Below, piece after piece: positions 1,753 to 63,994 of a stretch of DNA of 63,994 bases. The translations under genes and the position numbers were made by a program. The stretch is from assembly GCA_003696625.1 (NCBI GenBank), contig RFGR01000061.1, positions 1-63,994 on the forward strand, written 5' to 3'. The DNA is from Planctomycetota bacterium (GTDB lineage Bacteria; Planctomycetota; UBA1135). Within the stretch, counting starts at the first letter, position 1; every line of letters begins with the position of its first letter. A model generated the notes under the pieces. It did no database searches. It had not been told where the DNA came from and saw only the letters and a program-made list of their open reading frames with translations.

Positions 1753-2598
1753 TCAAATCCCGCCGCGTGCGGTCGGTCGCCGGACCTCCGCCGGGGCCGC
1801 GTCCGGGCAGGCGTGGGCCCGGACCACCCGGTCGACCCGGTAGGACTTGTAGTGGCGATCCCGGTGGCAGAAGGCCTCCATGATCAGCGAGGAGCCCCGC
1901 CGGAAGAGGAAGCGCGGCGTCACCCGCAAGGGCACAAGCCTCTGGTCCCGCAGGAGATAGTCGATATCCAGGGCCTCGCCGCGGTCGGCCGCGTCGAGCA
2001 GGAAGCCGATCCGGCCCGAACTCCGGGGCCGATCCGGGGCGTAGCTCGCCAGGGGGCGGCCGCGACCGAGGGCGGCGGCCAGTTCCTCCTCGCCGGCCGA
2101 CTCCAGCAGGTGGAGGGCGAGCCGCCAGGCGTGGCCGGCGTCGTCCAGCGCCCGGTGGTGGCGGCTGGGCGGCAGGCCGAGATCCCGGACCAGATTTTCG
2201 AGGCTGTGCGAACGCCGACGCAGCAGTCGTCGGGAGGCGCGCAGGGTGCACAGGACCCGGTTCTCCGGCACCGGCAGGCGGAGCCGAACGCACTCGGCCG
2301 CGATCATGGCGGCGTCGAAGGCGGCGTTGTGGGCCAGCAGCGGCCGATCGCCGCACCAGGCCAGGAAGCGGGGCAGAACCTCGGCGGCGGTCTCGGCGTC
2401 GGCCACGTCCCGGTCGGTGATGCCGTGGACCCGGACGACCTCGGGCGGGATCGGGCACTCCGGGAAGATCAGGGCCGAGAACCGCTCGGCCACCGCTCGG
2501 CCGCGGATCCGCAGGGCGCCGATCTCGACCAGACGGGCGCCGGGGGGCGCCCCGGTGGTCTCGGTGTCGAGCACGACGAGATCGCGCGGCAGGGCCAT
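1753..2598 (-). CDS. DEDDh 3'-5' exonuclease (DnaQ-like) fused to a C-terminal WYL-like domain
   Basis: DTETTG, AHNAAFD and HRALDDA Exo I-III motifs; C-terminal IDY..LRVTP..MEAFCH..YKSYRVDRV fits the WYL pattern. Confidence 0.85.
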   Translation of the reverse strand: MALPRDLVVLDTETTGAPPGARLVEIGALRIRGRAVAERFSALIFPECPIPPEVVRVHGITDRDVADAETAAEVLPRFLAWCGDRPLLAHNAAFDAAMIAAECVRLRLPVPENRVLCTLRASRRLLRRRSHSLENLVRDLGLPPSRHHRALDDAGHAWRLALHLLESAGEEELAAALGRGRPLASYAPDRPRSSGRIGFLLDAADRGEALDIDYLLRDQRLVPLRVTPRFLFRRGSSLIMEAFCHRDRHYKSYRVDRVVRAHACPDAAPAEVRRPTARGGI

Positions 2599-2609
2599 CG
2601 CCGCCGAGT

Positions 2610-3290
2610 CTAGCAGCAGGCGCCGGCCTCGGTGCGCTCGAGCGCGAAGGGGCGGAGCAGCCAGGTGCCGAGGTAGAAGAACGGCGTGTCGGCCAGCGCG
2701 ACCAGGGCCTTGAACAGCCACAGGTCGAGGACGGTGTCGACGATCCGCTCGCCGCTCCACACCCCGGCGAAGAGGACCAGGACGACCAGGCTGGAATCGA
2801 GGAACTGCGACACCAGGGTCGAGCCGTTGTTGCGCAGCCAGAGGTGCCGTCCGCCGGTCAACCGTTTCCAGAAGTGGAAGAGGCGGATGTCGGCGAACTG
2901 GGCGGCCAGGTAGGCGGTCATCGAGGCCGCCATCACCCGCCAAGCCGAGTGGAACACCCGCTCGTAGGTGGCGTCGTCGACGATCGACCCCTCGACGGCC
3001 GGGAAGCGGGAGCCGAGCCAGAGGACGCCGAGCACGAACAGCGAAACGACGAAGCCGACCTGGACCACCCGGTCGGCCCGCCGGCGACCGTAGATCTCGC
3101 TCAGCAGGTCGGTGACCAGGAAGGTCAGCGGGTAGGGCAGGGCACCGGCCGAGAGGACGAAGGTCTTGAAACCGAGATCGACGGTCAGGAACTTGTTGGC
3201 GACCAGGTTGCAGACGATCAGGGAGCCGAGGAACAGACCGGCGAGGAGGAGATAGACCGCCTCCGAGCGTTCGCGAGGGTCGCCGGTCAC
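2610..3290 (-). CDS. yhhQ: Queuosine precursor transporter (YhhQ/VUT family)
   Basis: Multi-TM; NLVANK, YPLTFLVTDLLSEIYG, AQFADI, LWLRNNGSTLVSQFLD; GTG overlaps the upstream TGA (GTGA). Confidence 0.88.
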   Translation of the reverse strand: MTGDPRERSEAVYLLLAGLFLGSLIVCNLVANKFLTVDLGFKTFVLSAGALPYPLTFLVTDLLSEIYGRRRADRVVQVGFVVSLFVLGVLWLGSRFPAVEGSIVDDATYERVFHSAWRVMAASMTAYLAAQFADIRLFHFWKRLTGGRHLWLRNNGSTLVSQFLDSSLVVLVLFAGVWSGERIVDTVLDLWLFKALVALADTPFFYLGTWLLRPFALERTEAGACC

Positions 3291-6011: not shown

Positions 6012-6076
6012 GGAATGCCATTATCGATCCCGGGTGGCGTCCGTAGAATGCTCCGTTCCGCCGGTTTCCGGAAACC

Positions 6077-7726
6077 ATGAAGACCCACCTCCGCACCCTC
6101 CTCGCCGCCGCTCTGGTGGGCGGCGCGCTCCTCTCCTCTCCGCTCGCCGCGGCCGCGCCCCAGGACCTGCCGATCTCGATCAGCGCCGAGGAGGCCGCCC
6201 GCAAGGGGCCGGACGGCATCCCCTACGGCGAGGACGTCCTCCGCGCCCTGGTCTACACCGCCGGCGCCCAGCAGGTGAACCAGATCGTCACCAGCGCCTT
6301 GATCGAGAGCGAGATCGAGCGCCGGCGCGAGGCCGGGATGCCGGTCGACCATTGCGTCGCCACGCCGGAGGAAATCGACGCCCGCATCGCCTCCCTGCAG
6401 GAGCAGTTCCAGAAGAACAACCCACAGCTCGACTTCTGGACCACCGTCGAGGCGATGGGCAACACCCGCGAGAGCTACCGGAAGGAGATCGAGCGGATGA
6501 TCCTGATCGACAAGCTGTTCTTCCCCGCCGATCCCGAGCGGTGGCCGCTCGACCTGCTGCGGGAGATCTTCGGGCCCAAGGAGCGGCCCGGCGCCCCGCC
6601 GCAGCAAGGCCAGGAGGGCGAAGAGCAGGCGCCGGCGATGACGCCGGACATCATGACCCAGACCGTCATGCCGACCTACGAGGAGGCGAAGCGGGCCAAG
6701 GAGGCGGGTGAGAAGTTCGAGGTCGGCGGCTTCGTCGCCCAGTACGTTCTCCGCCCCGGCGTGCTCCAGTGGCTGCGCCAGAACGCCGAGATCGTCGAGC
6801 CGTTCGACGGCCTGCCGGCCGGCGTCGCCCTGCGCGTGAACGGCCGCGACTTCCGCACCGCCGATCTCGCCGCCGGCATCGCCGACCTGGTCGGCCCGGT
6901 CGAGCGGGAGCGGGCGCGGATGCTGGTCGACACCATCTGGGCGACCGAGAAGGCGCTGGCCGAGAAGGGGGTTCTCCTGACCCCCGAGCAGTGCCGGCAG
7001 CGCATCGCCGAGGAACGGAAGGAGTACGTCAACTCCCCGATCAGCTATGAGCAGATGCAGCTCCAGTTCCTCGGCTATCCGTCGATGGAGGTCTTCCACC
7101 GGATCTACCGGCTGCGCCAGTCCTTCAAGGACCTGATGGGCGAGCCCGCCGCCGACGAACTCCAAGCCCACATCGAACGGCGCAAGAGCTTCCTCGGCCA
7201 GGGCAAGGTGGACGCCGAGGTGATCTACTTCGCCGCCCGCGACATGAAGACCGGCCTCTACCCGAAGGAGGGCGATCCCTTCGCCGAGGCGGAGAAGCGG
7301 GCCCGGCAGGCGGCCGGAGAGCTGGCCGCGGGCGCCGACTGGGCGGCGGTCCTGCTCAAGTACTCCGACCTGCCGGAGGCCTATCCGGGCACCCAGCCGG
7401 GCATGCCGACCCCGAATCGGGGCCGCTTCGGCGCCCTGCCGCGCAACCAGGTCCGCGACTTCCTGGGCGAGAACGACTACTTCGACTTCCTCTATGGAGT
7501 CTCGGTCGGGGATCTGATCTTCTTCGACGCCGAGCCGGGCACGATCTACGGCCCGGTGATGGGGCCGACCGGCTGGTGCATCTACAAGGTCAACCGGCGC
7601 CTCGATCCGGAGGTCGAGATCGACATCGCCAACAACCCGCGCCACGACTACCTCGTGCGGGACGACCTGCTCAACGTCCGCTTCTTCGCCTTCGTCGACG
7701 AGGTGATGAAGGCGCTGGAGGGCTGA
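6077..7726 (+). CDS. SurA/PrsA-like periplasmic chaperone/PPIase
   Basis: Signal peptide; long helical N-region; GADWAAVLLKYSD..GRFG..PGTIYGPVMGPTGWCIYKV parvulin domain. Confidence 0.7.
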   Translation: MKTHLRTLLAAALVGGALLSSPLAAAAPQDLPISISAEEAARKGPDGIPYGEDVLRALVYTAGAQQVNQIVTSALIESEIERRREAGMPVDHCVATPEEIDARIASLQEQFQKNNPQLDFWTTVEAMGNTRESYRKEIERMILIDKLFFPADPERWPLDLLREIFGPKERPGAPPQQGQEGEEQAPAMTPDIMTQTVMPTYEEAKRAKEAGEKFEVGGFVAQYVLRPGVLQWLRQNAEIVEPFDGLPAGVALRVNGRDFRTADLAAGIADLVGPVERERARMLVDTIWATEKALAEKGVLLTPEQCRQRIAEERKEYVNSPISYEQMQLQFLGYPSMEVFHRIYRLRQSFKDLMGEPAADELQAHIERRKSFLGQGKVDAEVIYFAARDMKTGLYPKEGDPFAEAEKRARQAAGELAAGADWAAVLLKYSDLPEAYPGTQPGMPTPNRGRFGALPRNQVRDFLGENDYFDFLYGVSVGDLIFFDAEPGTIYGPVMGPTGWCIYKVNRRLDPEVEIDIANNPRHDYLVRDDLLNVRFFAFVDEVMKALEG

Positions 7727-10087: not shown

Positions 10088-10791
10088 CCGGTGGCGGTCC
10101 GGCCGGCCCGGGCGGCGAGCAGGGCCTCGGCCAGCTCGAGGTCGGCGGGGGTGGTGATCTTCCGGTTCGTGCTCGGGGCCTCGACCAGGACCGGTTGGTG
10201 GCCGGCAGCCTCGAGCAGGGAGGACTCGTCGGTCGGCAGGCCGCGGGCGGCGGGGTCCCAGGCCTCGAAGGCGGCCAAGAGCAGGTCGCGGCGGGCTCCC
10301 TGCGGGGTCTGGGCTGCCCAAATCCCCTCGCGGGAGAGGGTGCCTGAGGACCGTCCGTCCGGGGTCGAGCGCTTCAGGGTGTCGGCCACCGGCGCCGCGG
10401 CCAAGGCGGCGCCGTGCTCGCGGACCGCGGCGGCGACCGCTTCGAACAGCTCGGCTTCGACCAGGGCGCGGGCGGCGTCATGGACCAGGACGAACTCGGC
10501 GGTGGCCGCTGCGCAACCGGCGCGGCTGGATTCCCAGCGTTCGGCGCCGCCGGGGACGACCCGGTCGGCGCCGAAGGCCTCCGGCGGCCGGCCCCACCGC
10601 TCGGCGAAGGCCGCCGCGTCCCGCGGCGGCATGACCAGGACGACCTCGGAGGTGCCGGCCGCGGCGCGGGCCGCGCGCAGCGATCGCGCCAGCAGAGGTT
10701 CTCCGGCCAGTTCGAGCAGGGCCTTGTTGCCCCGGCCCAGGCGGCGCCCTCGTCCGGCGGCGAGGACGACGACGGCGGTGTCCGGCCTCAT
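10084..10791 (-). CDS. ispD: 2-C-methyl-D-erythritol 4-phosphate cytidylyltransferase
   Basis: LAAGRGRR..NK, GGAER, VHDAAR, AQTPQ, TDE, NRKITTPADL. Confidence 0.95.
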   Translation of the reverse strand: MRPDTAVVVLAAGRGRRLGRGNKALLELAGEPLLARSLRAARAAAGTSEVVLVMPPRDAAAFAERWGRPPEAFGADRVVPGGAERWESSRAGCAAATAEFVLVHDAARALVEAELFEAVAAAVREHGAALAAAPVADTLKRSTPDGRSSGTLSREGIWAAQTPQGARRDLLLAAFEAWDPAARGLPTDESSLLEAAGHQPVLVEAPSTNRKITTPADLELAEALLAARAGRTATG

Positions 10792-10834
10792 GGCAGGATT
10801 CTAGGCCGGAGACGGTCCCTGCTAGCATGGCCCC
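10792..10834. promoter_or_regulatory. Back-to-back leaderless promoters for ispD and ruvC
   Basis: Minus-strand TAGAAT (10803-10798) lies 6 nt before ispD ATG; plus-strand TAGCAT (10823-10828) lies 6 nt before ruvC GTG. Confidence 0.65.
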
Positions 10835-11377
10835 GTGCAGAACCGGCGGATCCTCGGCGTCGATCCCGGCACGCGGATCGCCGGTTGGGGGGTGGTGGTC
10901 GAGGAGGCGCCCGGTCGGCTTCGCCGACTCGCCTCGGGGGTCTGGCGGCTCGATCGGCGGCAACCGGCGGCGGTCCGCCTGGCCCGGTTGCAGGAACTCG
11001 CAGCCGCCGCCCTCCGCGAGTGGCGACCGGACCGGCTGGCGCTGGAAGCAGCCTTCTTCGGGCGCAACGCCCGCTCGGCGCTCCGGCTCGGCGAGGCGCG
11101 CGGCGTGATCCTGGCGGCGGCGGCCGCCGCCGGGGTCGAGGTGGTCGAACTTCCGCCGGCGCTGGTCAAGCGCCGGGTCGGCGGCGGAGGGGCGGTGAGC
11201 AAGGAGGGCCTGGCCGCACTGGTGGCGGCCCAGCTCGGTTTCGAACCGCGCTCCGGGCCGGCCGACGAGACCGACGCCCTGGCAGTGGCGCTTTGCGCCT
11301 TCCTTCAAGCTCCTGCGGAAACGAGAAAACCAGGACATAATGGCCGAGAGCTGCCGCCTGGGGCGGCGCTTCAGTGA
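10835..11377 (+). CDS. ruvC: Holliday junction resolvase
   Basis: ILGVDPG, ALEAAFF, LGEARGV, DETDALAVALC. Confidence 0.93.
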   Translation: MQNRRILGVDPGTRIAGWGVVVEEAPGRLRRLASGVWRLDRRQPAAVRLARLQELAAAALREWRPDRLALEAAFFGRNARSALRLGEARGVILAAAAAAGVEVVELPPALVKRRVGGGGAVSKEGLAALVAAQLGFEPRSGPADETDALAVALCAFLQAPAETRKPGHNGRELPPGAALQ

Positions 11378-11378
11378 G

Positions 11379-12107: not shown

Positions 12108-12458
12108 GTGAAGGATCGCAGCCTGGCCACGCGGGCGGCCGGTGCCGTCCTCCTGGCGGCCTCGATCCGCACTCTCTTCTCCGGGATCGTCGCCGAACCC
12201 GCCGACCTGGCCGATCCGGTCCGCGGGGCGGAGGCCGTCCTGCCCGACCTACAACACGACGGCTGGCTCCGTTTGAGCTGGCTGCCCGGCTTGGGGCCGG
12301 AGCGGGCCCGGCAGGTGGTGGCCGCGCGCGCCAGGCTGTCGGTCCGGCTCACCCCGGAGAGGCTCGCCCTGCTGCCGGGGGTGGGGGAGCGGACGGCCGC
12401 CGAGATCGCCGCCTGGTACCGACGCGGCGGCCGGGGGCCGCCGGCAAGGCCGGGCTAG
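12108..12458 (+). CDS. ComEA-like helix-hairpin-helix DNA-binding protein
   Basis: N-terminal hydrophobic segment; two HhH motifs LPGLGPERA and LPGVGERTA. Confidence 0.75.
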   Translation: MKDRSLATRAAGAVLLAASIRTLFSGIVAEPADLADPVRGAEAVLPDLQHDGWLRLSWLPGLGPERARQVVAARARLSVRLTPERLALLPGVGERTAAEIAAWYRRGGRGPPARPG

Positions 12459-12468
12459 AATGCCGCGG

Positions 12469-18711: not shown

Positions 18712-19763
18712 CGCCCCCCGATCTCGACCACCTGCATGCCGCCCTTCCGGCCGAAGGGCGGCTCGTGCTCTGCACGCACCGGCACCCCGACCCGGACGGT
18801 CTCGGGGCGATGGCGGGCCTCCAGTTCCTGCTCCGGGCCGCCTTCGGGGTCGAGGCGGATCTCGTCCTGGAGGGGAGGATCCGGCGGGCGGAGAACCTGG
18901 CCATGCGCCGGCTGCTCGGGATCGAAGCCCTGCCCAAGGGCGGGGTCGACCCCGTCCAACACAAGGCGGTGTTCATCGTCGATTCCCAGCCCACCTTCTC
19001 CCACACTTCCCCGCCCGGAGGAGTGCCAGTGGTCGGGGTCGTGGACCACCACCGCGGGACCGAGGCCAACGGCTCGGAGGAGGGGCTGGGGGGGATCCCC
19101 TTCGTCTGGGTGGACCCCGACTACGGCGCCACCTCGACCATGGTCTTCCGTCTGTTCGAGGCCGCCGGAGTCGAGCCGGATCAGCGGGTGGCGACCGCTC
19201 TCTTCTGCGGGGTCCGCTACGACACGAACGACCTCGCCCGGGACGCCGGGGAGGCCGACGAGCGGGCTTACGAGGCCCTCCACCGGCTGGCGGACCGGAA
19301 GCTGGTCGCGGCCATCGACCAGCCTTCCCTGAGCCGGGAGTACTTTCGCCAGATGGCCGAGTCGATCCATGCCTGCGAGACCTACGGGCCCCTGCTCCTG
19401 ATTTTGATGGGGGAGGTCTCGAGCCCGGAGGCGGTGGCCGAGATCGCCGACTGGTTCGTCCGGCTCGAGGGGAAGCAGTGGTCGCTGGCGGGAGGAGCCT
19501 GCGACGGGGTCTACCAGGTCTCGCTCCGCACTGACATGCCCGGAGCGGACGCCTATCCGGCCCTCCGCTTCATCCTCGGCGAGGAGGGGGCCTGCGGCGG
19601 CCACGGTCGGATGGCCGGCGGTCAGATCCCGCTGACCGACCGCTCCCTCGAGGAGGTCCAGGCCCTCGTCCGGTCCCGGGCCCTGGAGGTCTTCGGTCTG
19701 GGCGGGCAGACCGGTCGGGCCCTGGTCGGGGATCCCTCCGGCCGGCCGGCGGTCGCCGATTGA
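18708..19763 (+). CDS. DHH/DHHA1 phosphoesterase (NrnA-like)
   Basis: HRHPDPDG, IVDSQ, VDHH, YDT, GGHGRMAGG. Confidence 0.9.
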   Translation: MTPPDLDHLHAALPAEGRLVLCTHRHPDPDGLGAMAGLQFLLRAAFGVEADLVLEGRIRRAENLAMRRLLGIEALPKGGVDPVQHKAVFIVDSQPTFSHTSPPGGVPVVGVVDHHRGTEANGSEEGLGGIPFVWVDPDYGATSTMVFRLFEAAGVEPDQRVATALFCGVRYDTNDLARDAGEADERAYEALHRLADRKLVAAIDQPSLSREYFRQMAESIHACETYGPLLLILMGEVSSPEAVAEIADWFVRLEGKQWSLAGGACDGVYQVSLRTDMPGADAYPALRFILGEEGACGGHGRMAGGQIPLTDRSLEEVQALVRSRALEVFGLGGQTGRALVGDPSGRPAVAD

Positions 19764-19805
19764 CAGCCCGCCCCGGGCGCTCTATCCTTTCCGCCCCTCG
19801 ACCAC

Positions 19806-25665: not shown

Positions 25666-25685
25666 CCGCGGCTATCCTGCCGCCG

Positions 25686-28102: not shown

Positions 28103-29469
28103 ACCGACGGCTCCTCCATCCGCTGCTGGTCCTGGTCGCGGCCGCCCTGATCTGGCTGTTCCTGCCGGAGGCGGCGGAGAAGCGCCGGCCGGCGCCCTCG
28201 GTGGAGGAGATCGCGGTCGCCGAGGCGCCGGCGGCGGCCGCCGCGAGCGGCGATCGGCCGGACTCAGGCCGCGCGGCGGTCGCGGCCCCCGACCGGCCGG
28301 CGGCCGCCGGCGAGGGGGACGAGGGCCACCTGCTCGTCCTCCGCTTCCGGGCCGAGGACCCCGACGCCCTGGCCGGGGTGCGCTGCCGGCTGTTGCTCGA
28401 GCAGAGCTTCGATTTCGCCGGCGAGCCCCCGGTCGCCGACCGGGAGGGGATCCTGGCCCCGGACGGTCTCGTCCGCTTCCTGCTCCCGCCCGGTCGGGTG
28501 GTCCCCGTCCTGCTGGCCGGAGGCGAGGAACTCGACCTGCCCGGGTTTTGGATGCCCGACGCCGCGCACGAGGAGGAGTACGACCTCGGCCGGCGCCTGG
28601 ACCTGCGCGTGCGGGCGCTGGCGGAGGGGCGGCCGGTCCGCCCCTGCCGCTTCGAACTCTGGGGCGGGGTCGGGATCGACGAGCCGCAGCCGCTTCTCCG
28701 CGGCGCCGCCGGACCGGACGGATTCTGGCGGCCGCGGCTGGCCTTCGGCGTCCTCGACCACCTGCGGATTCGACCGGAGGTCCCCTGGTTGCGCCAGAGC
28801 TTCGGTCCCTTCCCCCTGGCCGGCGCCCCGGCCGAGTGGTCGGTCGAGCTGCCGCTGGCCCGGTTCTCGCTCGAGCCGCCTGTCGACGCGGCCGGGAGAC
28901 CGGCGGTGGAGCCGGGGCTGGAGCTGCACCGGCTGCCCCTGGCCGGCGCCCCGGCCGACGGCTCCGAGTTCGAGGCGATCCCGCTGGCCGAGGCCCTGGC
29001 CGCCGGACCGATCTGGGTGGCCACCGGCCCCTGCCGGCTGGCGCTGGGCGGTCCCGGCGCCGGGCTCTACCGGCTCGAGGGCGAGACGGTCCTGGCGGCC
29101 GGCGCCGCCGCCGATCTGCGGCTCCGCCGGCGGCCGAGCGGACGCCTGGTGGTCGAAATCCTCGGCCCGGGGCGGCCGGTGGAGCCGGCCGGGATCGAGA
29201 TCCGGCCCGAGGAAGGCGGCCTCGGGTCGATCGAGGCGCCGCCGGCCGAGACGACCGGAGCCGCGTTCCGCCGCGCCTACCGGGTTCCCGCCGGCCGGGT
29301 CCGGGTGGAGCTGCGCGGGCCGCTGCTGATCCTCGGCAGTCGCCCGCCGCGCTACCTCGGGAGCGAGGAGGACCGCGCCGCCCTGGAGCTTCGGGTGGCC
29401 CCCGGCGGCGAGGCCGTGGCCCGTTTCCGGGCCGACGCGGACGGCTTGAGGGCGGCGGCGGGCGGCTAG
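28099..29469 (+). CDS. Membrane-anchored hypothetical protein
   Basis: N-terminal TM, Ala/Pro linker, beta-rich remainder; ATGA overlap. Confidence 0.6.
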   Translation: MNRRLLHPLLVLVAAALIWLFLPEAAEKRRPAPSVEEIAVAEAPAAAAASGDRPDSGRAAVAAPDRPAAAGEGDEGHLLVLRFRAEDPDALAGVRCRLLLEQSFDFAGEPPVADREGILAPDGLVRFLLPPGRVVPVLLAGGEELDLPGFWMPDAAHEEEYDLGRRLDLRVRALAEGRPVRPCRFELWGGVGIDEPQPLLRGAAGPDGFWRPRLAFGVLDHLRIRPEVPWLRQSFGPFPLAGAPAEWSVELPLARFSLEPPVDAAGRPAVEPGLELHRLPLAGAPADGSEFEAIPLAEALAAGPIWVATGPCRLALGGPGAGLYRLEGETVLAAGAAADLRLRRRPSGRLVVEILGPGRPVEPAGIEIRPEEGGLGSIEAPPAETTGAAFRRAYRVPAGRVRVELRGPLLILGSRPPRYLGSEEDRAALELRVAPGGEAVARFRADADGLRAAAGG

Positions 29470-29481
29470 AATCCCCGCTCC

Positions 29482-36253: not shown

Positions 36254-36300
36254 CGAGGACGGGGCGTGACCGCCGGAATCCGGCCGATAGAGTAGCCGAG

Positions 36301-39316: not shown

Positions 39317-39451
39317 GGAAAGAGGCGGCGCGGGGAAGGGAAGCCGGGAGGTGGGATGAGAGTCCTCGACCGTGGGTTCCCGCAAGGCTACCACGCGATC
39401 GGCGTTGCCGCCGGTCTCGGATCCGGCCGCCGCCTGTCCTAGGATGAGTTC

Positions 39452-41098: not shown

Positions 41099-41173
41099 AG
41101 GGCCAGGATAGGGCGAGCGGTGGTTTTCTTCGCAAGGCCGGCACCCCCACCGGCCGATGGAGGGGAGACCGTC

Positions 41174-42068: not shown

Positions 42069-42836
42069 ATGAGACGACCCCTGTTCCCGCTTCTGGCCGC
42101 CGCCCTGCTCGCCGTGCCCGCCCTCGCTCAGGATCCGTCCCAACCGGTCCCGACCGTCGAGGAGCCCCGCAGCGAGGTCGAGTTCCCGCGCTGGATGGAC
42201 TTCCCGGGCGGCAAGCAGCCGCTCCATCTCCTCGCCGTCGGGCTCCGCACCAAGACCATCTTCGCGGTCAAGGTCTACGCCTTCGGTCTCTACCTCGACG
42301 CCCGGGCGGCGGCGGCGGCGTTGCGCGACTACCGCGGCCTCCGGCCCAAGGACCGGCGCAAGAGCCGCGCCTTCTACCGCGCCCTCCTGAACGGCGATTT
42401 CAGCAAGGGCCTGCGCTGGGTGATGACCCGCGACGTCGACGGCGAAGACATCGCCGAGGCCTTCGCCGAATCCCTCGAGCCCCGACTGGAGAAACTGGCG
42501 CGGTCCGCCAAGCCGGAGGTGGTCGCGGCCGACCGGGCCGCCCTGGCCCGCTTCAAGACCTTCTTCAGCGACGAACTCGAGGAGGGGACCGAGCTGGTCT
42601 TCGCCTGGCATCCCGGCGGCCGGCTGGTGACCAGGATCGGCGGCAAGGTGATGGGCGAGGTGAAGTCCCACAACCTGGCCCTGGCCCTGTTCGACGTCTA
42701 CCTCGGCTCCGATCCGATCTCCGAGGACGCCAAGGAGGCTTTCGCCGACGCCCTGCCCGGGTTCCTGGACCTGGCCGCCGGGCTGCCGCCGCTTCCGGCC
42801 GCGGAGGAAGCGGCGGACGCCGGCGCCGACGGTTAG
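42069..42836 (+). CDS. Exported chalcone-isomerase-like fold protein (paralog 2)
   Basis: Signal peptide; GLRTKTIFAVKVYAFGLY, ALFDVYLGSDPIS..AK; GGAGG Shine-Dalgarno upstream. Confidence 0.82.
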   Translation: MRRPLFPLLAAALLAVPALAQDPSQPVPTVEEPRSEVEFPRWMDFPGGKQPLHLLAVGLRTKTIFAVKVYAFGLYLDARAAAAALRDYRGLRPKDRRKSRAFYRALLNGDFSKGLRWVMTRDVDGEDIAEAFAESLEPRLEKLARSAKPEVVAADRAALARFKTFFSDELEEGTELVFAWHPGGRLVTRIGGKVMGEVKSHNLALALFDVYLGSDPISEDAKEAFADALPGFLDLAAGLPPLPAAEEAADAGADG

Positions 42837-42848
42837 AATGCCGCCTCG

Positions 42849-45418: not shown

Positions 45419-45431
45419 GCCGGATCCCTCC

Positions 45432-46043
45432 CTAGAGCTTGATGCCGCCGAAGAGCATGAACCCCATCGCCATCAGGCCGGCGGTGAGGAAGGTGATGCC
45501 GAGGCCGCGCAGCCCGTGCGGCACGTTCGAGTACTTCATCTTCTCTCGTACCGCGGCCAGGGCGAGGATCGCCAGCCACCAACCGAGGCCGGAGCCGAGG
45601 CCGAAGACCACGCTCTGGGCGAAGTCGTACTCGCGCTGGACCATGAACAGCGAGCCGCCGAGGATGGCGCAGTTGACCGCGATCAAGGGCAGGAACACGC
45701 CCAGGGTGGTGTAGAGCTTGGGCGCGAACCGGTCGATCGTCATCTCGACGATCTGGACCATGGCGGCGATGGTGGCGATGAAAGCGATGAAGCTCAGGAA
45801 GCTCAGGTCGACGCCGGCCAGGCTCGGGCTGATCCAGCTCAGGGCGCCTTCCTTGAGCAGCCAGGTGTAGATCAGGTTGTTGAGCGGCACCGTCACCGTC
45901 TGGACGAAGGTCACCGCCATGCCCAGACCCATCGCCGTCTCGACCTTCTTCGACACGGCCAGGAACGAGCACATGCCCAGGAAGAAGGCCAGGGCCATGT
46001 TCTCGACGAAGACCGACTTGACGAACAGGTTGAGGAGTTCCAT
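45432..46043 (-). CDS. nqrE: Na+-NQR subunit E
   Basis: [31 protein letters not shown]. Confidence 0.96.
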
Positions 46044-46046
46044 GCC

Positions 46047-46670
46047 CTACTCCTTCTCCTGCATGCTGGGGGAGATCGTGCGCTGGATCCAGATGATCAG
46101 GCCGATCAGGAAGAAGGCCCCCGGCGACAGCACCAGCAGGCCGTTCGGCTGGTACCAGCCGCCGTTGTTGACCGTTTCGAAGACGGTGTGGCCGAGGATC
46201 TTGCCCGAGCCGAACAGCTCCCGGCAGAAGCCGACGACCAGCAACAGCAGCGAGTAGCCGAGAGCGTTGCCGAGGCCGTCCAGCGCCGACTTGCCGACCG
46301 GGTTGGCCATGGCGAAGGCCTCGGCCCGGCCCATGACGATGCAGTTGGTGATGATCAGGCCGACGAAGACCGAGAGCTGCTTGCTGACGTCGTAGACGAA
46401 GGCCTTGAGGACCTGGTCGGCGACGATCACCAGCGAGGCGATCACCGCCAACTGGACGATGATCCGGACGCTGCCGGGGATCAGGTTGCGCAGTGCGGAG
46501 ATGACGGTATTGGAGCCGACCAGGACGAAGGTCAGCGCCGCCGACATGACCACCGCCGTCTCGAGCTTGGTCGTCACGGCCAGGGCCGAGCAGATGCCGA
46601 GCACCTGCAGCGTGACCGGGTTGTTGATGTGGAGCGGATCGACCAGGACCTTGCGCGTCTTCTTGTCCAT
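46047..46670 (-). CDS. nqrD: Na+-NQR subunit D
   Basis: [34 protein letters not shown]. Confidence 0.96.
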
Positions 46671-46673
46671 GGT

Positions 46674-47456
46674 TCAGGCCCTCCCGGTGTTGGCGCGGAG
46701 GAAGGCGCCGTAGCCGGCCTCGCCCAGCCACAGGCGCACGAAGTTGTTGACGGAGCGGCTGGTGATCGTTGCCCCGGAGATGCCGTCAACCTGGAAGTCG
46801 GGGTCGGCGGCCTTGCCGGCCTTGGTCACTTCGATCCGGAGGGCGCCGGCGTCGTCGAAGATGCGCTTGCCGCGCCACTGGGCCTTCCAGCGCGGATTGT
46901 CGACCTCGCCGCCGAGCCCCGGGGTCTCGCCGTGTTCGTAGAACGTGATGCCGCGGATCCGCTGCAGGTTCTCCTCGAGGGCCAGGAAGCCCTTCAAGGT
47001 CGACCACAGGCCGTTGCCCCAGATCGGCAGCACCCAGCCTTCCTTGCCGGGGACGGTGACGTGGAAGACCAGGAGCCGATCGGGCAGGAAGCCGACCCGG
47101 GAAGGGTCTTCGAGGCCGTCGACGGCCGAGGTCGGAGTGCCCTTGCCGGGGGTCTTGGCGTCGGCCATCAGGGCGGCGACGTCGTAGCCGGCCGGGGCCG
47201 GGCCGACCCGCTCGCCGGTCCGCCGGTCGTAGAGATCGGCCGAGATCGATTCGAACATCTTCGCCACCTCGGCCGGCGAGGGGTGCTGACCTTCCTCGAT
47301 CAGGCCGGCGACGGCCAGGATGTTGGTCTGTAGGTCGAGGCGCTTGTTGGCGTCCTGCCGCTCCCCGAGGCCGACCGCAAACAACGACACGACCAGCGAG
47401 CAGACCAGGCAGACCACCAGCGCGAAGCCGACGATGTACTTGTTACTGAACTCCAA
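46674..47456 (-). CDS. nqrC: Na+-NQR subunit C
   Basis: GLWS, HGETPGLGGE, FMN site DGISGATIT. Confidence 0.95.
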   Translation of the reverse strand: MEFSNKYIVGFALVVCLVCSLVVSLFAVGLGERQDANKRLDLQTNILAVAGLIEEGQHPSPAEVAKMFESISADLYDRRTGERVGPAPAGYDVAALMADAKTPGKGTPTSAVDGLEDPSRVGFLPDRLLVFHVTVPGKEGWVLPIWGNGLWSTLKGFLALEENLQRIRGITFYEHGETPGLGGEVDNPRWKAQWRGKRIFDDAGALRIEVTKAGKAADPDFQVDGISGATITSRSVNNFVRLWLGEAGYGAFLRANTGRA

Positions 47457-48603
47457 GGCGCTGCTCCCGACGCTTGACGTTGGCCTTGACCACGTAGTAG
47501 TCGATGACCGGTGCGAAGATGTTCATGAACAGGATGGCGAGCATCATGCCCTCGGGATAGGCCGGATTGACCACCCGGACGAGGACGGTGAGGACGCCGA
47601 TCAGAACGCCGTAGATCCAGCGGCCGGTGTCGGTCTGGGCGGCCGAGACCGGGTCGGTGGCCATGAAGACGGTGCCGAAGGCGAAGCCGCCGACGACCAG
47701 GTGCCAGTACCAGGGCAGGGCCAGGTAGTGCTCCGGCGACGGCGCCAGCAGGTTGAAGAGCGAGGCCGTGCCGGCCATGCCGAGCAGACAGCCGAGCATC
47801 ACCCGCCAGGAGGCGATGCGGGTGAAGAGCAGGATGGCGGCGCCGATCAGACAGCAGAGGGTGCTGGTCTCGCCGAAGGAACCGGGCATCAGGCCGAGGA
47901 AGGCGTCGCTCCAGCTCATGCCGGCGGTGGCGGCGGCGCCGTCGGCGTAGAAGTGGGCCAGCGGTGTGGCGCCGGAGAAGCCGTCGAGCCAGTGCTCGCG
48001 GCCGGCGACCCAGACCAGGTCGCCGGAGATCTGGGCCGGATAGGCGAAGAACAGGAAGACCCGGGTGGTCAGGGCCGGGTTGAGCACGTTCATGCCGGTG
48101 CCGCCGAAGACCTCCTTGCCGATGACGACTCCGAAGGCGGTGCCCAGGGCGAGCTGCCAGAGCGGGATGGTCGGCGGCACGATGAGCGGGATGAGCAGGC
48201 CCGTGACCAGGAAGCCCTCGTTGATCTCGTGCTTGCGGACCGCGGCGAAGACCGTCTCGATTCCGCCGCCGACCGCCATCACCACCAGGTAGCGGGGCAG
48301 GAACATCAGCAGGCCGGCCAGGAAGGCCTCGGCCGCGCCCGGATCCTGCCCGGCGGCGAGGCCGGCCTGGCGGCCGGCGTTCCACATCCCGAACAGGGCG
48401 CAGGGGAGAAGCGCCCAGACGACGGTCATCATCGTCCGCTTGAGGTCGATGCCGTCGCGGATGTGCGGACCCTCGCTGGTCCGGCGGCCCGGGGTGTAGA
48501 GGAAGCTGTCGGCCGCCTCGTAGAGCGGATAGAGCTTGTGCAGGCGACCGCCCTCCTCGAACAGGGGCGCGATCTTGTCGAGCTGTCGGCGCAGGAAGGA
48601 CAC
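47443..48603 (-). CDS. nqrB: Na+-NQR subunit B
   Basis: HIRDGIDLKR, KEVFGGTG, FMN site DGFSGATPL, FMATDPV, YPEG. Confidence 0.96.
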   Translation of the reverse strand: MSFLRRQLDKIAPLFEEGGRLHKLYPLYEAADSFLYTPGRRTSEGPHIRDGIDLKRTMMTVVWALLPCALFGMWNAGRQAGLAAGQDPGAAEAFLAGLLMFLPRYLVVMAVGGGIETVFAAVRKHEINEGFLVTGLLIPLIVPPTIPLWQLALGTAFGVVIGKEVFGGTGMNVLNPALTTRVFLFFAYPAQISGDLVWVAGREHWLDGFSGATPLAHFYADGAAATAGMSWSDAFLGLMPGSFGETSTLCCLIGAAILLFTRIASWRVMLGCLLGMAGTASLFNLLAPSPEHYLALPWYWHLVVGGFAFGTVFMATDPVSAAQTDTGRWIYGVLIGVLTVLVRVVNPAYPEGMMLAILFMNIFAPVIDYYVVKANVKRREQRLGVQ

Positions 48604-48607
48604 GGGA

Positions 48608-49966
48608 TCAGCCCTCCTTCTCGATCCGGTCGAGCATCTCCCGCAGCAGGCGGGTGACGGGGGTCTTCGAGGGGCAGACGTATTCGCAGAGGGCGACGTC
48701 CTCCTCGGCGAGTTCGAGGACGCCGAGCTTCTCGGCTCCCTCGAGGTCGTGGCTGGCCAGAGCCTTGATCAATTGCGTGGCCATGATGTCCATCGGCATC
48801 ACCCGCTCGTAGGAGCCGATCGGGACGATGGCCCGGTCGCTGCCGTTGCGGTCGGTGTCGAAGCGGAGCCGCCGGCGGACGAACTTGGCCAGGGCGGCGT
48901 TGGTGAAGGTGTGGCGGCGGCCGATCGGCTTCAGCCAGCCGAGGAACTCGCGCGCCGGGGCGTCGTCGAGGATCGTGACCTGGTTGTCGTAGCGGCCGAG
49001 GAAGCCGTAGGGACCGCCGGGCTGGGCGTTGCCGCCCGCGAGCGGGCAGCCGGAGACCACCCGGGCCTGCTCGACCCCGATCCGACCCGCGCACAACTCC
49101 TCGGTGGCGGCGCCGCGGCGGGTCCGGAGCAGCGCCGGCTCGCGCGCCGCCGGCCCGACCACGGCGATCAGGCGCCGGCTCGGAATGCGGCCGGTGGTCA
49201 GGAATTCGCCGATGTCGGCCACGTCCTGGTAGCCGACGTGCCAGACCGCCCGGCCGGGGCCGACCGGGTCGAGGGCGTTGATGTGGACGCCGGCGTTGCC
49301 GGCCGGATGGGGGCCGCTGAAGGCGGTGTGCTCGACGCCGTCGACCAGGAAGTCGTGCCAGTCCTCGCCGGCGGCGGTGCAGAGTCGGACCCGGCCGGAG
49401 GTGAGGCGGCCGAGGGCGACCAACCCGGCCCGGAACGCCGCCTGCCGGCCCTCGAGCAGGGCGAGCGGCGGCGGCGCCAGCGGCCGGGTGTCCATCGCCG
49501 TGACGAAGATCGAGCGCGGATCCCCCTCCGAGGGCGCCACCTTGTCGAAGGGGCGCTGGCGCAGGCAGGGCCAGAGGCCCGAGCGCAGCAGGTGGCCGCG
49601 GATGGTGTCGGCGTCGGCCTGCACCGGGTCGGCCGGCTCGAACGGGACCTGCTCCTCCTCGCCGGAAGCCGGATCGAGGCGGACGACCACCGACTGAACC
49701 ATCCGCCGTCGGCCGCGGTTGATCGCCACCACCTCACCGGCGCCGGGCGAGGTGAAGAGAACGTGCTCGTCCCGTCGGTCGTGGAACAGGGGGTCGCCGA
49801 GGCGGACCCTTTGGCCGATGTGGACGTGGAGCTTGGTCTTGATCCCCAGCGCTTCCTGGGGTTTCAGGGCCACGTGGTGGATCGGCGGGCCGTCCTGGGC
49901 CACGGTGGACTCCAGGCCGCCGGGGATCGGCACGTCGAATCCCTTTCGGATCTTGACGACGGACAT
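48608..49966 (-). CDS. nqrA: Na+-NQR subunit A
   Basis: KIRKGFDVPIPG, GPHPAGN, VMPMDI, ELAEEDVALCEYVCPSK. Confidence 0.95.
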   Translation of the reverse strand: MSVVKIRKGFDVPIPGGLESTVAQDGPPIHHVALKPQEALGIKTKLHVHIGQRVRLGDPLFHDRRDEHVLFTSPGAGEVVAINRGRRRMVQSVVVRLDPASGEEEQVPFEPADPVQADADTIRGHLLRSGLWPCLRQRPFDKVAPSEGDPRSIFVTAMDTRPLAPPPLALLEGRQAAFRAGLVALGRLTSGRVRLCTAAGEDWHDFLVDGVEHTAFSGPHPAGNAGVHINALDPVGPGRAVWHVGYQDVADIGEFLTTGRIPSRRLIAVVGPAAREPALLRTRRGAATEELCAGRIGVEQARVVSGCPLAGGNAQPGGPYGFLGRYDNQVTILDDAPAREFLGWLKPIGRRHTFTNAALAKFVRRRLRFDTDRNGSDRAIVPIGSYERVMPMDIMATQLIKALASHDLEGAEKLGVLELAEEDVALCEYVCPSKTPVTRLLREMLDRIEKEG

Positions 49967-50201
49967 CGGGCCAGCTCGGTTCGGATGGGGGGCCGCGGCC
50001 TCCGAGGACGGACCGCCCCCCTCGAGTTTCCGGGAGGGCGGACCGCGGTCAGGCCGGGATTGTAGGGATTCCGGACGCTGGGGGATAAGGCAGGGATCCG
50101 AGAATGCCAGTCCCGTCACGGCCGGTGCGGATGGATTCCCCGCCGGGGCTATCCTCTGCCCGTAGCCGGTCGGGGCGGCAGCCCCGCCCGCGCCCCTGCC
50201 C

Positions 50202-55056: not shown

Positions 55057-55088
55057 GCCCCGGCATGGTAGGTCCGCCGACCGCCTGC

Positions 55089-57239: not shown

Positions 57240-57359
57240 CGGCGACGGCGAATGTAGCAGGGCCGGGCGGCATTCCTCCTTCCGCCCTTGAGCCGGCGGC
57301 CGGCGGTCCTAGAAGATGCCTCCTCCGGCCGCCGCCCGCGGCCGACCCTGGATTCCGAC

Positions 57360-61341: not shown

Positions 61342-61362
61342 GCGGAGCTAAATTCTGCCGGC

Positions 61363-62166
61363 ATGGGCGGGGCAGACCAAATCGAGGGCGGGCGCCGGCC
61401 GCCGCTCAGCGTGTTCGTCATCGCCCAGGACGAGGAGGCGCACATCGCCGACTGCCTGGCCAGCGCCTCCTTCGCCGCCGAACTTCTGGTTCTGGACGGC
61501 GGCTCCCGCGACCGCACCCCGGAGCTGGCGGCGGCGGCCGGGGCGCGGGTGGAACGGAGGCCGTTCGACGGCATGAACAGCCAGAAGAACGCCGCCCTGG
61601 CCCTCTGCCGCCAGCCGTGGGTGCTGAATCTCGACGCCGACGAGCGCGTCTCGCCCGAGCTGCGCCGGGAGATCGAGGCACTGTTCGCCGCCGGCGAGCC
61701 GGCCTGCGCCGGCTACACGATGCCGCGGCGGGCCTGGCACCTCGGCCGCTGGATCCGCGGCGGCGGCTGGTACCCGGACCGCAAGCTGCGCCTGTTCCGG
61801 CGCGACGCCGGCCGCTTCGCCGGCTGCGATCCCCACGACAAGGTCGTGGTCGACGGTCCGGTCGGGCGGTTGCACGGCGACCTGCTCCACTACGCCTACC
61901 GGGACCTCGCCCATCACGAAGCGAAGATGGAAACCTACACCACCGCCGCCGCCCGCAGCGCGTTCGCCGCCGGCCGGCGGGCGCCGCTGCTGCGGATGGT
62001 TCTGTCGCCGCCGCTCCGGTTCCTCAAGTCCTACTTCTTGCGGGCCGGGTTCCGGGACGGCCGGGCCGGCCTGATCCTGGCCTGGATGGCCGCCCGCTAC
62101 GAGTGGCACCGCTGGCGGAAGCTGCGCCGACTGCGCCGCGGCGGTCAGCCCTCCGCCGACTGCTAG
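61363..62166 (+). CDS. GT2 glycosyltransferase (WaaE/KdtX-like)
   Basis: LSVFVIAQDEE, DGGSRDRT, QKN, LDADE, WYPD..LRLF, GFRDG. Confidence 0.9.
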   Translation: MGGADQIEGGRRPPLSVFVIAQDEEAHIADCLASASFAAELLVLDGGSRDRTPELAAAAGARVERRPFDGMNSQKNAALALCRQPWVLNLDADERVSPELRREIEALFAAGEPACAGYTMPRRAWHLGRWIRGGGWYPDRKLRLFRRDAGRFAGCDPHDKVVVDGPVGRLHGDLLHYAYRDLAHHEAKMETYTTAAARSAFAAGRRAPLLRMVLSPPLRFLKSYFLRAGFRDGRAGLILAWMAARYEWHRWRKLRRLRRGGQPSADC

Positions 62167-62175
62167 ACTCCGGCC

Positions 62176-63994
62176 ATGACCAGCGGCATCCTGGCCGGCG
62201 CCGGGCTGATCGCCCTCCTCGACCTGGTGGTGCGGATCCCGCTCCAGGTTCCGGGGTTCGCCCGGGAGGCCGCCCTGGTCGCCGCCGTCGGCGCTCTGCT
62301 CGGCGCTCTGCTCGCCCGCCTCGTGGCCTGGGCCCTGCCCCGCGGCCCCCGGCCGGCCGGCACCGGTTTCTGGCTCGGCCTGGCCGTGGCCGGGGTGCCG
62401 CTGTTCGGGTCCTTCCTGCCCCGGCACTCCTTCGGGCTGATCTTGGCGCCGATCGGCCTGCTGGCGGCCCGCCGCCTCGGGGAACGCTGGCAGCCGCCGG
62501 TCGCGCTGCGCCGGCTGCTTGCCGTCGTTCCGCCGGTCGGCGTTCTGATCGCCCTACTCCTGCCCGGGCTGCGGCCGCCGCAGCTTCCGCCGGAGGAGCC
62601 CGGCCCGTTCCCGGCGGGCCCCGACGTGCTTCTGATCTCCTGTGACACGCTGCGCGCCGACGCCCTCGAGGAACTGGCCGGCCGGCTGCCGAACCTGGAA
62701 CGCCTTCGTCGCCGGGCGCTCTGGGCCCCCTACGCCCTGGCCGCGTCCTCCTCGACCCGGCCCAGCCATACGACGATGCTCTCCGGCCTGCCGGTCGTGC
62801 AACACGCCGTGCGCAGCAACCAGTGGCGGATGGGGGAGGGGATCGAACTGATCTCCGAGCGGTTCCGGGCCGCCGGCTGGCGGACTGCGGCGGTGGTCAG
62901 CAACGCGATGATCAGCGCCGGAGCCGGCTTCGACCGCGGCTTCGAGGTCTTCGACGAGACCCCGATCGTCCGCCGCCACTTCCGGAACGAGGAACTGGCC
63001 GCCAGCAGCTTTTCCCTCGACCGCTTCCTCCTCGTCGCCCGCCGGGGCACCTGGGTGGGATGGCTGGGACTGTTCGGCCCAGCGGCGGAGGAGTGGGTCC
63101 TCCACGTCTGGAAGGGACTGCCGGTGAACCGCGGCAACGGTCGGGTCACCGCCGAGCGGGCGGCGGCACTGCTCGATCGGCTGTTGGTCGGCCGCGCTCC
63201 GTACTTCCTGTTCGTCCACCTGATGGACCCGCACACCCCCTACGCGCCGCCGGCGGGCGTGCCCGGCCTCCCCGGCCGGGCCGAGGAGGTCCCGGAGGCG
63301 TTCCGGGTCGGGGACTGGGGGCCCGGCGACTGGACGGTGCTGAACGAAGTGGGGGAGGCCCTGGCCTCGGATGACGAGGCGCGAGTCGCCGAAGCGCGCG
63401 CCTTCCTCGAGCAGGTCCGGCCGCTCTACCACGAGGAGGTCCTCTTCGTCGACCGAATCGTCGGCGAGCTGCTCGATCGAATCGAACGGGGTGGGCGCGA
63501 GACCGTGGTGCTCTTCACCTCCGATCACGGCGAACAGTTCGGCGAGCACGGCCTCGTCCTGCACTCCAACTCGCTCTACGAGGAGCTGCTGCGGGTGCCG
63601 TTCCTCCTCGCCGGCCCTGGAGTCGAACCGGGCCGACTGGAGGAGCCGCCGCAGCACATCGACGTCGCTCCGACCCTCCTGGCCCTGGCCGGGCTCGACC
63701 CGTCCGGTTTGCCCGGGCGGGTGCTGACCGCCGCCGGCGGGGCCGAACCGCGTCCGCACGTCGCCCGGTTCCACGAGTGGCTGGCGGTGCGCAAGGATGG
63801 TTGGAAGCTGATTCTCGAAGAGGACGGCGAGAACGGGTTCCGGCCGGTGGAGCTGTACCGGCTCGAGCGGGATCCGAGCGAGGGCGAGAACCTGCTCGAG
63901 GAGGTCCCGCCGATGCTGCCGGAGCTGGCTCGGCTGGCGGCGGCGGCCGCGGCTGCCGAGCGGGGGGCTCGGGGGGCGGAGTTGGATACGGGGG
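62176..63994 (+). CDS. Membrane-anchored sulfatase-like hydrolase/transferase (partial, runs off window)
   Basis: Not in the ORF track. ATG 62176, TM region, then VLLISCDTLRAD, STRPSHTTMLSG, VHLMDPHTPY, TSDHGEQFGEHG; no stop before the window end. Confidence 0.85.
   Translation, partial: MTSGILAGAGLIALLDLVVRIPLQVPGFAREAALVAAVGALLGALLARLVAWALPRGPRPAGTGFWLGLAVAGVPLFGSFLPRHSFGLILAPIGLLAARRLGERWQPPVALRRLLAVVPPVGVLIALLLPGLRPPQLPPEEPGPFPAGPDVLLISCDTLRADALEELAGRLPNLERLRRRALWAPYALAASSSTRPSHTTMLSGLPVVQHAVRSNQWRMGEGIELISERFRAAGWRTAAVVSNAMISAGAGFDRGFEVFDETPIVRRHFRNEELAASSFSLDRFLLVARRGTWVGWLGLFGPAAEEWVLHVWKGLPVNRGNGRVTAERAAALLDRLLVGRAPYFLFVHLMDPHTPYAPPAGVPGLPGRAEEVPEAFRVGDWGPGDWTVLNEVGEALASDDEARVAEARAFLEQVRPLYHEEVLFVDRIVGELLDRIERGGRETVVLFTSDHGEQFGEHGLVLHSNSLYEELLRVPFLLAGPGVEPGRLEEPPQHIDVAPTLLALAGLDPSGLPGRVLTAAGGAEPRPHVARFHEWLAVRKDGWKLILEEDGENGFRPVELYRLERDPSEGENLLEEVPPMLPELARLAAAAAAAERGARGAELDTG

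Follow-up and report, generated by a model that had tools for sequence, protein, structure and literature searches.

The 63,994-nt contig RFGR01000061.1 of the Planctomycetota bacterium assembly GCA_003696625.1 (contig C111; this whole stretch is called the window in the following) raises the question of how genes are started when a TAnnnT hexamer is located only a few nucleotides upstream of the start codon. The initial annotation had reported such hexamers for 14 genes and had proposed that leaderless transcripts are the dominant mode of initiation in this lineage, a mode not known to be described for Planctomycetota. The analysis described here indicates that the hexamers are, with high probability, sigma-70 −10 boxes adjacent to the start codon, from which mRNAs that are leaderless or carry a leader of 1–5 nt are predicted to be transcribed. 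By counts, the start-adjacent box is substantial but not dominant, and it is not peculiar to this genome.

Boxed genes of the window and their orthologs

All 14 hexamer and spacer pairs were re-read and are present in the window exactly as reported. In total, 60 genes were called in the window and 57 TAnnnT sites were found on both strands (31 + 26). A 15th boxed gene, encoding a TPR protein, had been missed. Furthermore, the exonuclease, ispD, DUF1080 and LonC genes were corrected to the minus strand, and the start codons of ruvC (10835) and of the open reading frame (ORF) named nqrM (42849) were corrected to GTG. The window is syntenic in four relatives of the same genus with about 70–80% DNA identity. 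The boxes are listed below with the spacer between hexamer and start codon and, for most of them, with their state in these relatives.

2607..2612, minus strand: TAGACT box, spacer 8 to ATG 2598 of the DEDD exonuclease gene, TAG being the stop codon of the upstream gene 2610-3290 (minus); kept with spacer 7 in 4/4 genus relatives
10798..10803, minus strand: TAGAAT box, spacer 6 to ATG 10791 of ispD, back to back with the ruvC box; kept in 3/3 relatives covered
10823..10828, plus strand: TAGCAT box, spacer 6 to GTG 10835 of ruvC; TAGGAT with spacer 6 before GTG in 3/3 relatives
12456..12461, plus strand: TAGAAT box, spacer 7 to ATG 12469 of nadC, TAG being the upstream stop codon
20395..20400, plus strand: TATTCT box, spacer 9 to ATG 20410 of plsY; TATTCT with spacer 9 in 4/4 relatives
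25673..25678, plus strand: TATCCT box, spacer 7 to ATG 25686 of the M3 oligoendopeptidase gene (pepF); spacer 8 in 3/3 relatives
29467..29472, plus strand: TAGAAT box, spacer 9 to ATG 29482 of the glycine-tRNA ligase gene, TAG being the stop codon of gene 28099-29469; spacer 9 in 4/4 relatives
36288..36293, plus strand: TAGAGT box, spacer 7 to ATG 36301 of the gene of a vWA-domain protein; TAATCT, TACGGT or TAAGGT with spacer 6–8 before an ATG in 4/4 relatives
39440..39445, plus strand: TAGGAT box, spacer 6 to ATG 39452 of the gene of an MDR-family dehydrogenase
41105..41110, minus strand: TATCCT box, spacer 6 to ATG 41098 of the gene of a PF06439 protein (DUF1080); spacer 5–8 in 4/4 relatives
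42834..42839, plus strand: TAGAAT box, spacer 9 to GTG 42849 of an ORF of 96 amino acids (aa), TAG being the stop codon of gene 42069-42836; box at spacer 6 before GTG in 3/3 relatives covered
55065..55070, minus strand: TACCAT box, spacer 8 to ATG 55056 of the gene of a LonC-like protease; TAGGAT or TAACAT with spacer 8–9 in 2/2 relatives
57251..57256, minus strand: TACATT box, spacer 11 to ATG 57239 of the gene of the TPR protein; TACATT at spacers 9 and 11 in 2/2 relatives
61349..61354, plus strand: TAAATT box, spacer 8 to ATG 61363 of the gene of a GT2 glycosyltransferase; spacers 6 and 8 in 2/2 relatives
62164..62169, plus strand: TAGACT box, spacer 6 to ATG 62176 of a sulfatase gene that runs off the contig, TAG being the GT2 stop codon; spacer 7 in 2/2 relatives

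Most of the family names given initially could be matched in NCBIfam or Pfam, but "WYL" and "nqrM" were without a match at an E-value of 1e-5. Ten names were matched in NCBIfam (DEDD exonuclease, ispD, ruvC, nadC, plsY, M3 peptidase, glyS, MDR, Lon-like and sulfatase), of which ruvC was the best match but under the cut-off. Four were matched in Pfam (vWA, PF06439, GT2 and LonC), LonC being found in both libraries.

For the 14 genes reported initially, the box is present at 44 of 44 covered ortholog starts, and 12 of the 56 gene-genome pairs are uncovered. Variation among the orthologs affects the middle bases (TAGGAT to TACAAT, TACCAT to TAGGAT), with T, A and T constant. The MDR hexamer TAGGAT includes AGGA, which resembles a Shine-Dalgarno (SD) motif and had been overlooked; the orthologs have TACAAT or TAGAAT in 3/3 relatives covered, so that TA..T is kept and AGGA is lost. 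The nadC start is ambiguous, as an in-frame ATG at 12460 overlaps the hexamer (TAGAATG) and both ATGs are kept in 3/3 relatives. For the vWA gene, the boxed ATG is the second-nearest start in three relatives. The back-to-back boxes of ispD and ruvC share a gap of 43 nt (10791-10835), an arrangement that is kept in three relatives; genome-wide, both genes are boxed in 48 of 346 divergent pairs, 13 of them with gaps of just 17–26 nt.

Conservation was also determined on 855 kb of the same-genus genome G002, with starts projected from alignments. From 656 sites, 458 pairs could be scored; at 33 sites no start lay within range, and the remainder were excluded by the filters for identity or N-terminal coverage. 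The G002 ortholog has a box for 72 of 82 boxed genes vs. 9 of 376 unboxed genes, and the spacers differ in 30 of the 72 kept pairs, mostly by 1–3 nt. Small samples from three other family members agree, with a box in the orthologs of 9/11, 8/12 and 2/3 boxed genes vs. 6/52, 3/25 and 6/25 unboxed genes.

Enrichment across the genome and position in transcription units

The assembly comprises 3.04 Mb in 186 contigs with a G + C content of 72.6% and is 90.5% complete. The genome contains 3223 TAnnnT sites and, independently of gene calls, the start codons following them were tallied by distance. ATG occurs 24/145/89/76/87/46/45 times at 5/6/7/8/9/10/11 nt and 13–37 times at distances of 12–40 nt. 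GTG has a peak of 87 at 6 nt; TTG is at background level there (18) and shows no peak at 6–7 nt after these sites. The control hexamers TAnnn[ACG] and T[CGT]nnnT gave no such start-codon peak in the same genome. The start-adjacent signal has a sharp onset at spacer 6, for ATG and GTG and not for TTG.

For the called genes, a home-made caller with a self-trained dicodon model was used, which is blind to upstream sequence and sets starts by coding score and a codon prior. It called 2557 genes, of which the 2439 that have a closed start as well as 60 nt of upstream sequence were kept; spacer and composition counts are based on the 2435 genes for which 80 nt of upstream sequence was available (430 boxed). 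The motif search upstream of these genes revealed a clear positional enrichment over shuffled controls: TAnnnT stands at spacer 5–11 before 431 of 2439 genes (17.7%) vs. 43 ± 6 (maximum 58) in 200 shuffles, and before 74 genes at spacer 25–31. The shuffles keep the composition, and the test without gene calls agrees with them. Both results argue against an artefact of composition or gene calling, in which A/T-richer intergenic DNA of a 73% G + C genome would produce the hexamers, and the probability of this explanation is practically negligible.

The boxes are concentrated at first genes. Among divergent first genes, at which a transcript has to begin, 220 of 692 are boxed (31.8%, control 41), whereas among overlapped internal genes only 9 of 597 are (1.5%, control 6; Fisher p 3e-55). 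When first genes are defined by the 25-nt rule of GeneMarkS-2, 336 of 1327 are boxed (25%). SD 4-mers show the reverse distribution, with 280 of 597 overlapped genes (47%, control 69) vs. 101 of 692 divergent genes (15%, control 91, i.e., 13%). Two modes are therefore likely to be present in this genome, as judged from motif positions: promoter-adjacent starts at first genes and SD-assisted, probably coupled, starts inside operons. With the strict box at 17.7% of all genes, a quarter of the first genes and 32% of the divergent genes, and with SD in use at overlapped genes, the proposal that leaderless initiation is the dominant mode could not be upheld.

A stronger form of this proposal, in which more than half of the primary transcripts are leaderless and degenerate boxes are missed by the strict pattern, is a question of amount and compatible with the −10 box explanation, but is considered unlikely. 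The Deinococcus motif marks about a third of the genes (PMC12340547), yet 60% of the D. deserti mRNAs were found to be leaderless by differential RNA sequencing (dRNA-seq; PMC4007540). The lack of SD enrichment at first genes points in the same direction, as do slightly raised counts of [ACG]AGAAT and CAnnnT at spacer 6–9 in unboxed first genes. However, such degenerate variants add tens, not hundreds. Allowing other in-frame starts raises the boxed first genes only to 395/1327 (controls 71–76) and the boxed divergent genes to 257/692 (controls 42–43); the excess over control is about 24% for first genes counted in this way and 26–31% for divergent genes. In addition, a strong box lies 12–100 nt upstream of 258 among the 991 unboxed first genes, a raw count without matched control, which suggests leadered transcripts for these genes.

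Probable assignment of the hexamers to sigma-70 promoters

The commonest hexamers among the 430 boxes are TAGAAT (81), TATCCT (55), TAGGAT (54), TAGGCT (34) and TAGACT (33), with a C directly before the box in 71%. One RpoD protein above the TIGR02393 cut-off was found in the genome. No clear −35 signal could be detected at the 430 start-adjacent boxes, apart from a TTG excess that is weak at best (9 at spacer 17), and an extended −10 element (TGn) was rejected as a general feature because it is present at only 35 of 430 boxes. At boxes away from starts, TTGAC peaks 16–17 nt before the hexamer (10 and 9 vs. 0–4 elsewhere). Of 52 tRNA and tmRNA genes, 31 have a TAnnnT within 80 nt, mostly at a distance of 10–20 nt. 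The window contains one such case with a full promoter:

19760..19788, plus strand: TTGACA–17 nt–TATCCT, full sigma-70-type promoter before tRNA-Gly(GCC) 19806-19880

This predicted promoter is an example of the hexamer in the role of a −10 box before a gene that is not translated. The restriction to first genes, the conservation in orthologs and the tRNA promoters with TTGAC at 16–17 nt support the assignment of the hexamers as putative sigma-70 −10 boxes for leaderless or very-short-leader transcription and, to this extent, the initial interpretation.

The hexamers could alternatively be read at the RNA level, as a ribosome-binding signal other than SD in leadered mRNAs, similar to GeneMarkS-2 group B or to an A/U patch read by bS1. 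The distance between box and start is about that of an SD, first genes are nearly without SD enrichment, so that another signal is needed, and leaderless and RPS1 signals could not be separated in Planctomycetes in the analysis of Nakagawa 2017. But motifs of group B precede first and internal genes alike (PMC6028130), whereas the hexamer is at background before overlapped genes. The same hexamers also stand before tRNA genes, paired with TTGAC, and TTG starts lack the peak at 6–7 nt. An RNA-level signal is thus rated as very improbable.

According to the −10 box explanation, the housekeeping sigma-70 factor would use TAnnnT 6–11 nt before the starts of roughly one quarter to one third of the first genes, and transcription would begin at the AUG or GUG itself or 1–5 bases before it. 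As in other species, the ribosome would then load on the 5′-terminal AUG or GUG with fMet-tRNA and without SD. Internal genes of operons would use SD-assisted, probably coupled, initiation.

In sigma-70 promoters, the +1 position lies 6–7 nt past the −10 hexamer. The spacers of the 430 boxed genes are 5 (6 genes), 6 (157), 7 (72), 8 (73), 9 (67), 10 (25) and 11 (30). By this geometry, the 229 genes with spacer 6–7 are predicted to be strictly leaderless, while the 195 genes with spacer 8–11 would have a shifted +1 on an A or a leader of 1–5 nt. At spacer 6, the start codons are 104 ATG, 52 GTG and 1 TTG. The context of the boxed starts is GCCATG-like whatever the spacer, with a preference for G at −3 (50–68% at spacers 6–9) and for C at −1 (58–71%; 47–71% over all spacers). 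GTG is enriched solely at spacer 6 (52/157 vs. 35/212 at spacers 7–9).

Several observations weigh against this explanation. Nearly half of the spacers are 8–11 and exceed the 6–7 reported for D. radiodurans (PMC12340547), and given these spacers, many boxed mRNAs may not be strictly leaderless. An SD-like 4-mer, for the most part the AGGA within TAGGAT, is present in 63 of 430 boxed genes, an in-frame ATG lies inside the hexamer in 4 of 430, and in 53 of 430 the first half of the box is the TAG or TAA stop codon of the upstream gene. Furthermore, the caller chose other starts than the initial annotation at nadC, glyQS and LonC, although the ortholog alignments favor those of the initial annotation. 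After removal of boxed genes with an SD-like 4-mer, stop overlap or embedded ATG, 320 of 430 remain and the peak is still at spacer 6. A broad spacer as a distinctive trait was rejected, as a comparable tail was obtained for 59 Actinomycetota loci (68/69/68/40/39/30).

The stop overlap, which also affects five of the 14 genes reported initially (exonuclease, nadC, glyQS, "nqrM" and sulfatase) and had been missed there, raises the possibility that the boxes are a by-product of TAG and TAA stop codons and short intergenic spacers, i.e., of translational coupling, and not promoters. TAG-N-ATG automatically results in TAnnAT, as seen at nadC. Yet the 377 boxes free of stop overlap keep the peak at 6–9, the boxed divergent genes have no upstream stop codon, and no peak follows TAnnn[ACG]. 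TAG stop codons are followed by T at hexamer position 6 at 100 of 270 tandem vs. 9 of 217 convergent gene ends (p 2e-20), and for 49 of these 100 tandem stops the next start is located 9–14 nt downstream. At gaps of 9–14 nt, TAG even outnumbers TGA (68 vs. 65), although TGA accounts for 1869 of 2438 stop codons overall. A by-product of stop codons is accordingly regarded as scarcely probable. Under the −10 box explanation, the upstream stop codon would instead supply the first half of the box in the overlapping cases, and the choice of the stop codon appears to be driven by the promoter of the next gene. In the literature searched, no description of stop codons doubling as −10 boxes could be found.

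Both bS21 and CarD may be linked to leaderless expression. bS21 was found in all 61 genomes of a sample of the order and CarD_C in none of these 61, which is the reverse of the pattern in the Thermus, Deinococcus and Corynebacterium controls. Loss of bS21 was consequently rejected as an explanation, as was support of promoters without a −35 element by CarD. A single PF02559 match is located in a frame of 1223 aa, which is read as Mfd, and was rejected as CarD. No 16S rRNA gene could be found in the assembly itself, and the 16S rRNA of relatives was read instead. The inspection of the 3′ tail revealed an intact anti-SD, as all 24 near-complete loci, which come from 22 relatives and include G002 of the same genus, have kept CACCUCC; six partial loci were left out. 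In three family members (L088/G035, L092/G027 and L095/G005) the 16S 3′ end is GGACCACCUCC instead of GGAUCACCUCC, with the CCUCC core intact.

Spread across Planctomycetota and relation to known systems

The assignment to Planctomycetota was borne out by the RpoB neighbors: 41 relatives have 75–90% identity, of which seven are labeled Planctomycetota or Planctomycetes in their source and none otherwise, and the next neighbors are at ≤66%. GlyQS was dropped as a lineage marker in favor of RpoB, as its best 80 loci are mostly Actinomycetota and Chloroflexota and only two are labeled Planctomycetota. The encoded glycine-tRNA ligase (29482-30945) is of the dimeric type, and the identity of these best GTDB matches, among which close genomes may be left out, is 52–61%.

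For a screen of the phylum, TANNNTN{6,9}ATG was counted against the frame-matched TANNNTN{18,21}ATG in 401 genomes drawn across Planctomycetota. A reversed pattern as control was replaced by this offset control, because its genome-dependent baseline (about 0.45–1) hid many positives. A z-score >5 was obtained for 158 of 401 genomes, including this one, which ranks 25th of the 158 by excess per Mb, and a z-score < −3 for one genome; in these counts, kin are not independent and positives are concentrated at high G + C content. At least one positive member is present in 37 of 105 families, e.g., in f10 (12/12), f29 (11/11), f33 (17/18), f62 (7/7) and f68 (10/11). Families without positives in the screen are f13 (0/21), f56 (0/13), f54 (0/10) and f83 (0/6); AT-rich families such as f40 (0/19) cannot be judged by it. 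By its genome sizes and completeness, f13 may represent the cultured Planctomycetia.

The screen is positive for 64 of 66 genomes in the lowest-background bin and for 0 of 77 in the highest, which by itself would favor the composition artefact considered above. This trend is largely a loss of sensitivity, since an excess of 60 per Mb is detectable in only 229 of 401 genomes, and 148 of these 229 are positive. Gene-level checks with one simplified caller on samples of 100–800 kb per genome also argue against it. Divergent genes are boxed in 55/194 cases in G002 (73% G + C), 16/48 in G005 (59%), 9/30 in G021 (51%) and 6/16 in G013 (53%), in 17/100 in G057 of the same order and in 32/98 in G415 of a distant family, but in only 1/104 in G205 (f13, 63%). 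Because family members with 51–59% G + C are positive and G205 with 63% is negative, the start-adjacent box, as defined by these motif counts, is a lineage trait and not only an effect of the G + C content. SD motifs are not enriched at divergent first genes in this genome, G002, G021 and G013, and are used there in G057, G205 and G415.

Among the named comparators, a z-score >5 was obtained for five of six Actinomycetota, one of two records labeled Planctomycetota and three of 17 from other phyla. With an excess of 96 per Mb, the genome lies within the range of the six Actinomycetota genomes (56–148). A strong box signal was also observed in L042, L075 and L073 (453 vs. 142, 662 vs. 161 and 697 vs. 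279), of which two are labeled Acidobacteriota and one Gammaproteobacteria, labels as given.

The pattern resembles group C of GeneMarkS-2, which is characterized by a Pribnow box about 10 nt before the first genes of operons and SD at internal genes (Lomsadze et al., 2018, PMC6028130). Both features are found here, the anti-SD being intact in the relatives. In group C, 25–50% of transcripts are leaderless, and the 25% of first genes found here with a home-made caller are at the low end. Group B differs, as its motif precedes first and internal genes. Group C includes 90% of Actinobacteria and 97% of Deinococcus-Thermus, but only 2 of 52 genomes of the Planctomycetes-Verrucomicrobia-Chlamydiae (PVC) group, in which 50.8% of first genes are leaderless (Table S4, PMC6028130). 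The same table assigns 11 of 16 Planctomycetes to group A and three to group X, which leaves two planctomycetes and two chlamydiae for two places in B and two in C, so that the C genomes may be planctomycetes.

In Deinococcus-Thermus, TANNNT likewise stands just before AUG or GUG, a −35 element is not needed, and TANNNT and GGAG serve as dual signals (PMC12340547, PMC4007540). The −10-motif geometry of leaderless genes was confirmed in Deinococcus by dRNA-seq, proteomics and mutation (PMC4007540; PMC12340547), and mutation of conserved −10 bases abolishes transcription in D. radiodurans (PMC12340547). There, the experimentally validated motif has a spacer of mostly 6–7 and TACACT as commonest hexamer (PMC12340547), whereas the boxes described here mark 18% of genes, have spacers of 6–11 with TAGAAT, TATCCT and TAGGAT as commonest hexamers, and are predicted from the sequence. 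The combination of bS21 and missing CarD_C in the order sample is a further difference. The genome table of the D. radiodurans study includes planctomycetes (PMC12340547). The TA-led genes of Zheng et al. (2011, PMC3160421) also have a degenerate TAnnnT at G + C contents >60%, and the boxed share found here compares with a mean of 19.2% in Actinobacteria and 13.3% in Acidobacteria; Planctomycetes are not named in that text.

The single planctomycete in ProTISA is not classed as TA-like (PMC2238952). SD for reinitiation has been described for haloarchaea, some Crenarchaeota and cyanobacteria, and the lineage studied here is similar; the same work places Planctomycetes as E. coli-like with intermediate SD at both positions, a pattern from which this lineage departs (Huber et al., 2019, PMC6728339). 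An SD use of 46–48% is given for Planctomycetota in PMC10783764. No paper describing leaderless mRNAs in Planctomycetota could be found in the main texts searched, with most of the subscription literature and per-phylum supplementary data outside this search. The initial claim of an undescribed trait is partly wrong in view of the two PVC genomes in group C and of one planctomycete listed under "leaderless mRNA and/or RPS1" (Nakagawa 2017). The mechanism is known and the phylum is under-reported.

A wider picture, for which we see a little less than an even chance, is that leaderless initiation would be a major mode in much of Planctomycetota that has been overlooked so far; after Actinomycetota and Deinococcota, this would be the third large bacterial group to use it. 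It would be absent from a large, best-assembled family that was probably behind the earlier surveys. It would operate with bS21 kept and without CarD, with de novo initiation nearly free of SD in the family of this genome, leaders of 1–5 nt on nearly half of the mRNAs, and stop codons selected as −10 boxes.

The usefulness of the finding lies in its breadth, as about 40% of the sampled Planctomycetota genomes are positive and whole families are negative. Positive and negative families form natural pairs, in which related bacteria are rich or poor in leaderless genes. Because bS21 is kept and CarD is seemingly absent, unlike in the Actinomycetota and Deinococcota models, they could be used to test which features leaderless expression needs. 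If SD is assumed in start annotation or expression-vector design for planctomycetes, the starts of as many as a third of the first genes would be misplaced. The window alone is unsurprising; of specialist interest are the patchy spread across the phylum, first genes without SD, and stop codons that also serve as −10 boxes.

Apart from the boxed starts, a few further features were observed. The 549-aa ORF 6077-7726 (plus strand) and the 96-aa ORF 42849-43139 (plus strand) have good coding scores and gave no hit in Pfam or NCBIfam at the applied thresholds; the latter is conserved in four relatives. In the window, nqrA (NCBIfam match) heads a run of six genes read as nqrA-F (43146-50064, minus strand). 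It has TACAAT 92 nt upstream and looks leadered, and SD-like GGAG stands before several of the internal genes. A selenocysteine tRNA was called by ARAGORN on another contig of the genome (C38, 9569-9666), with TACCCT 10 nt upstream.

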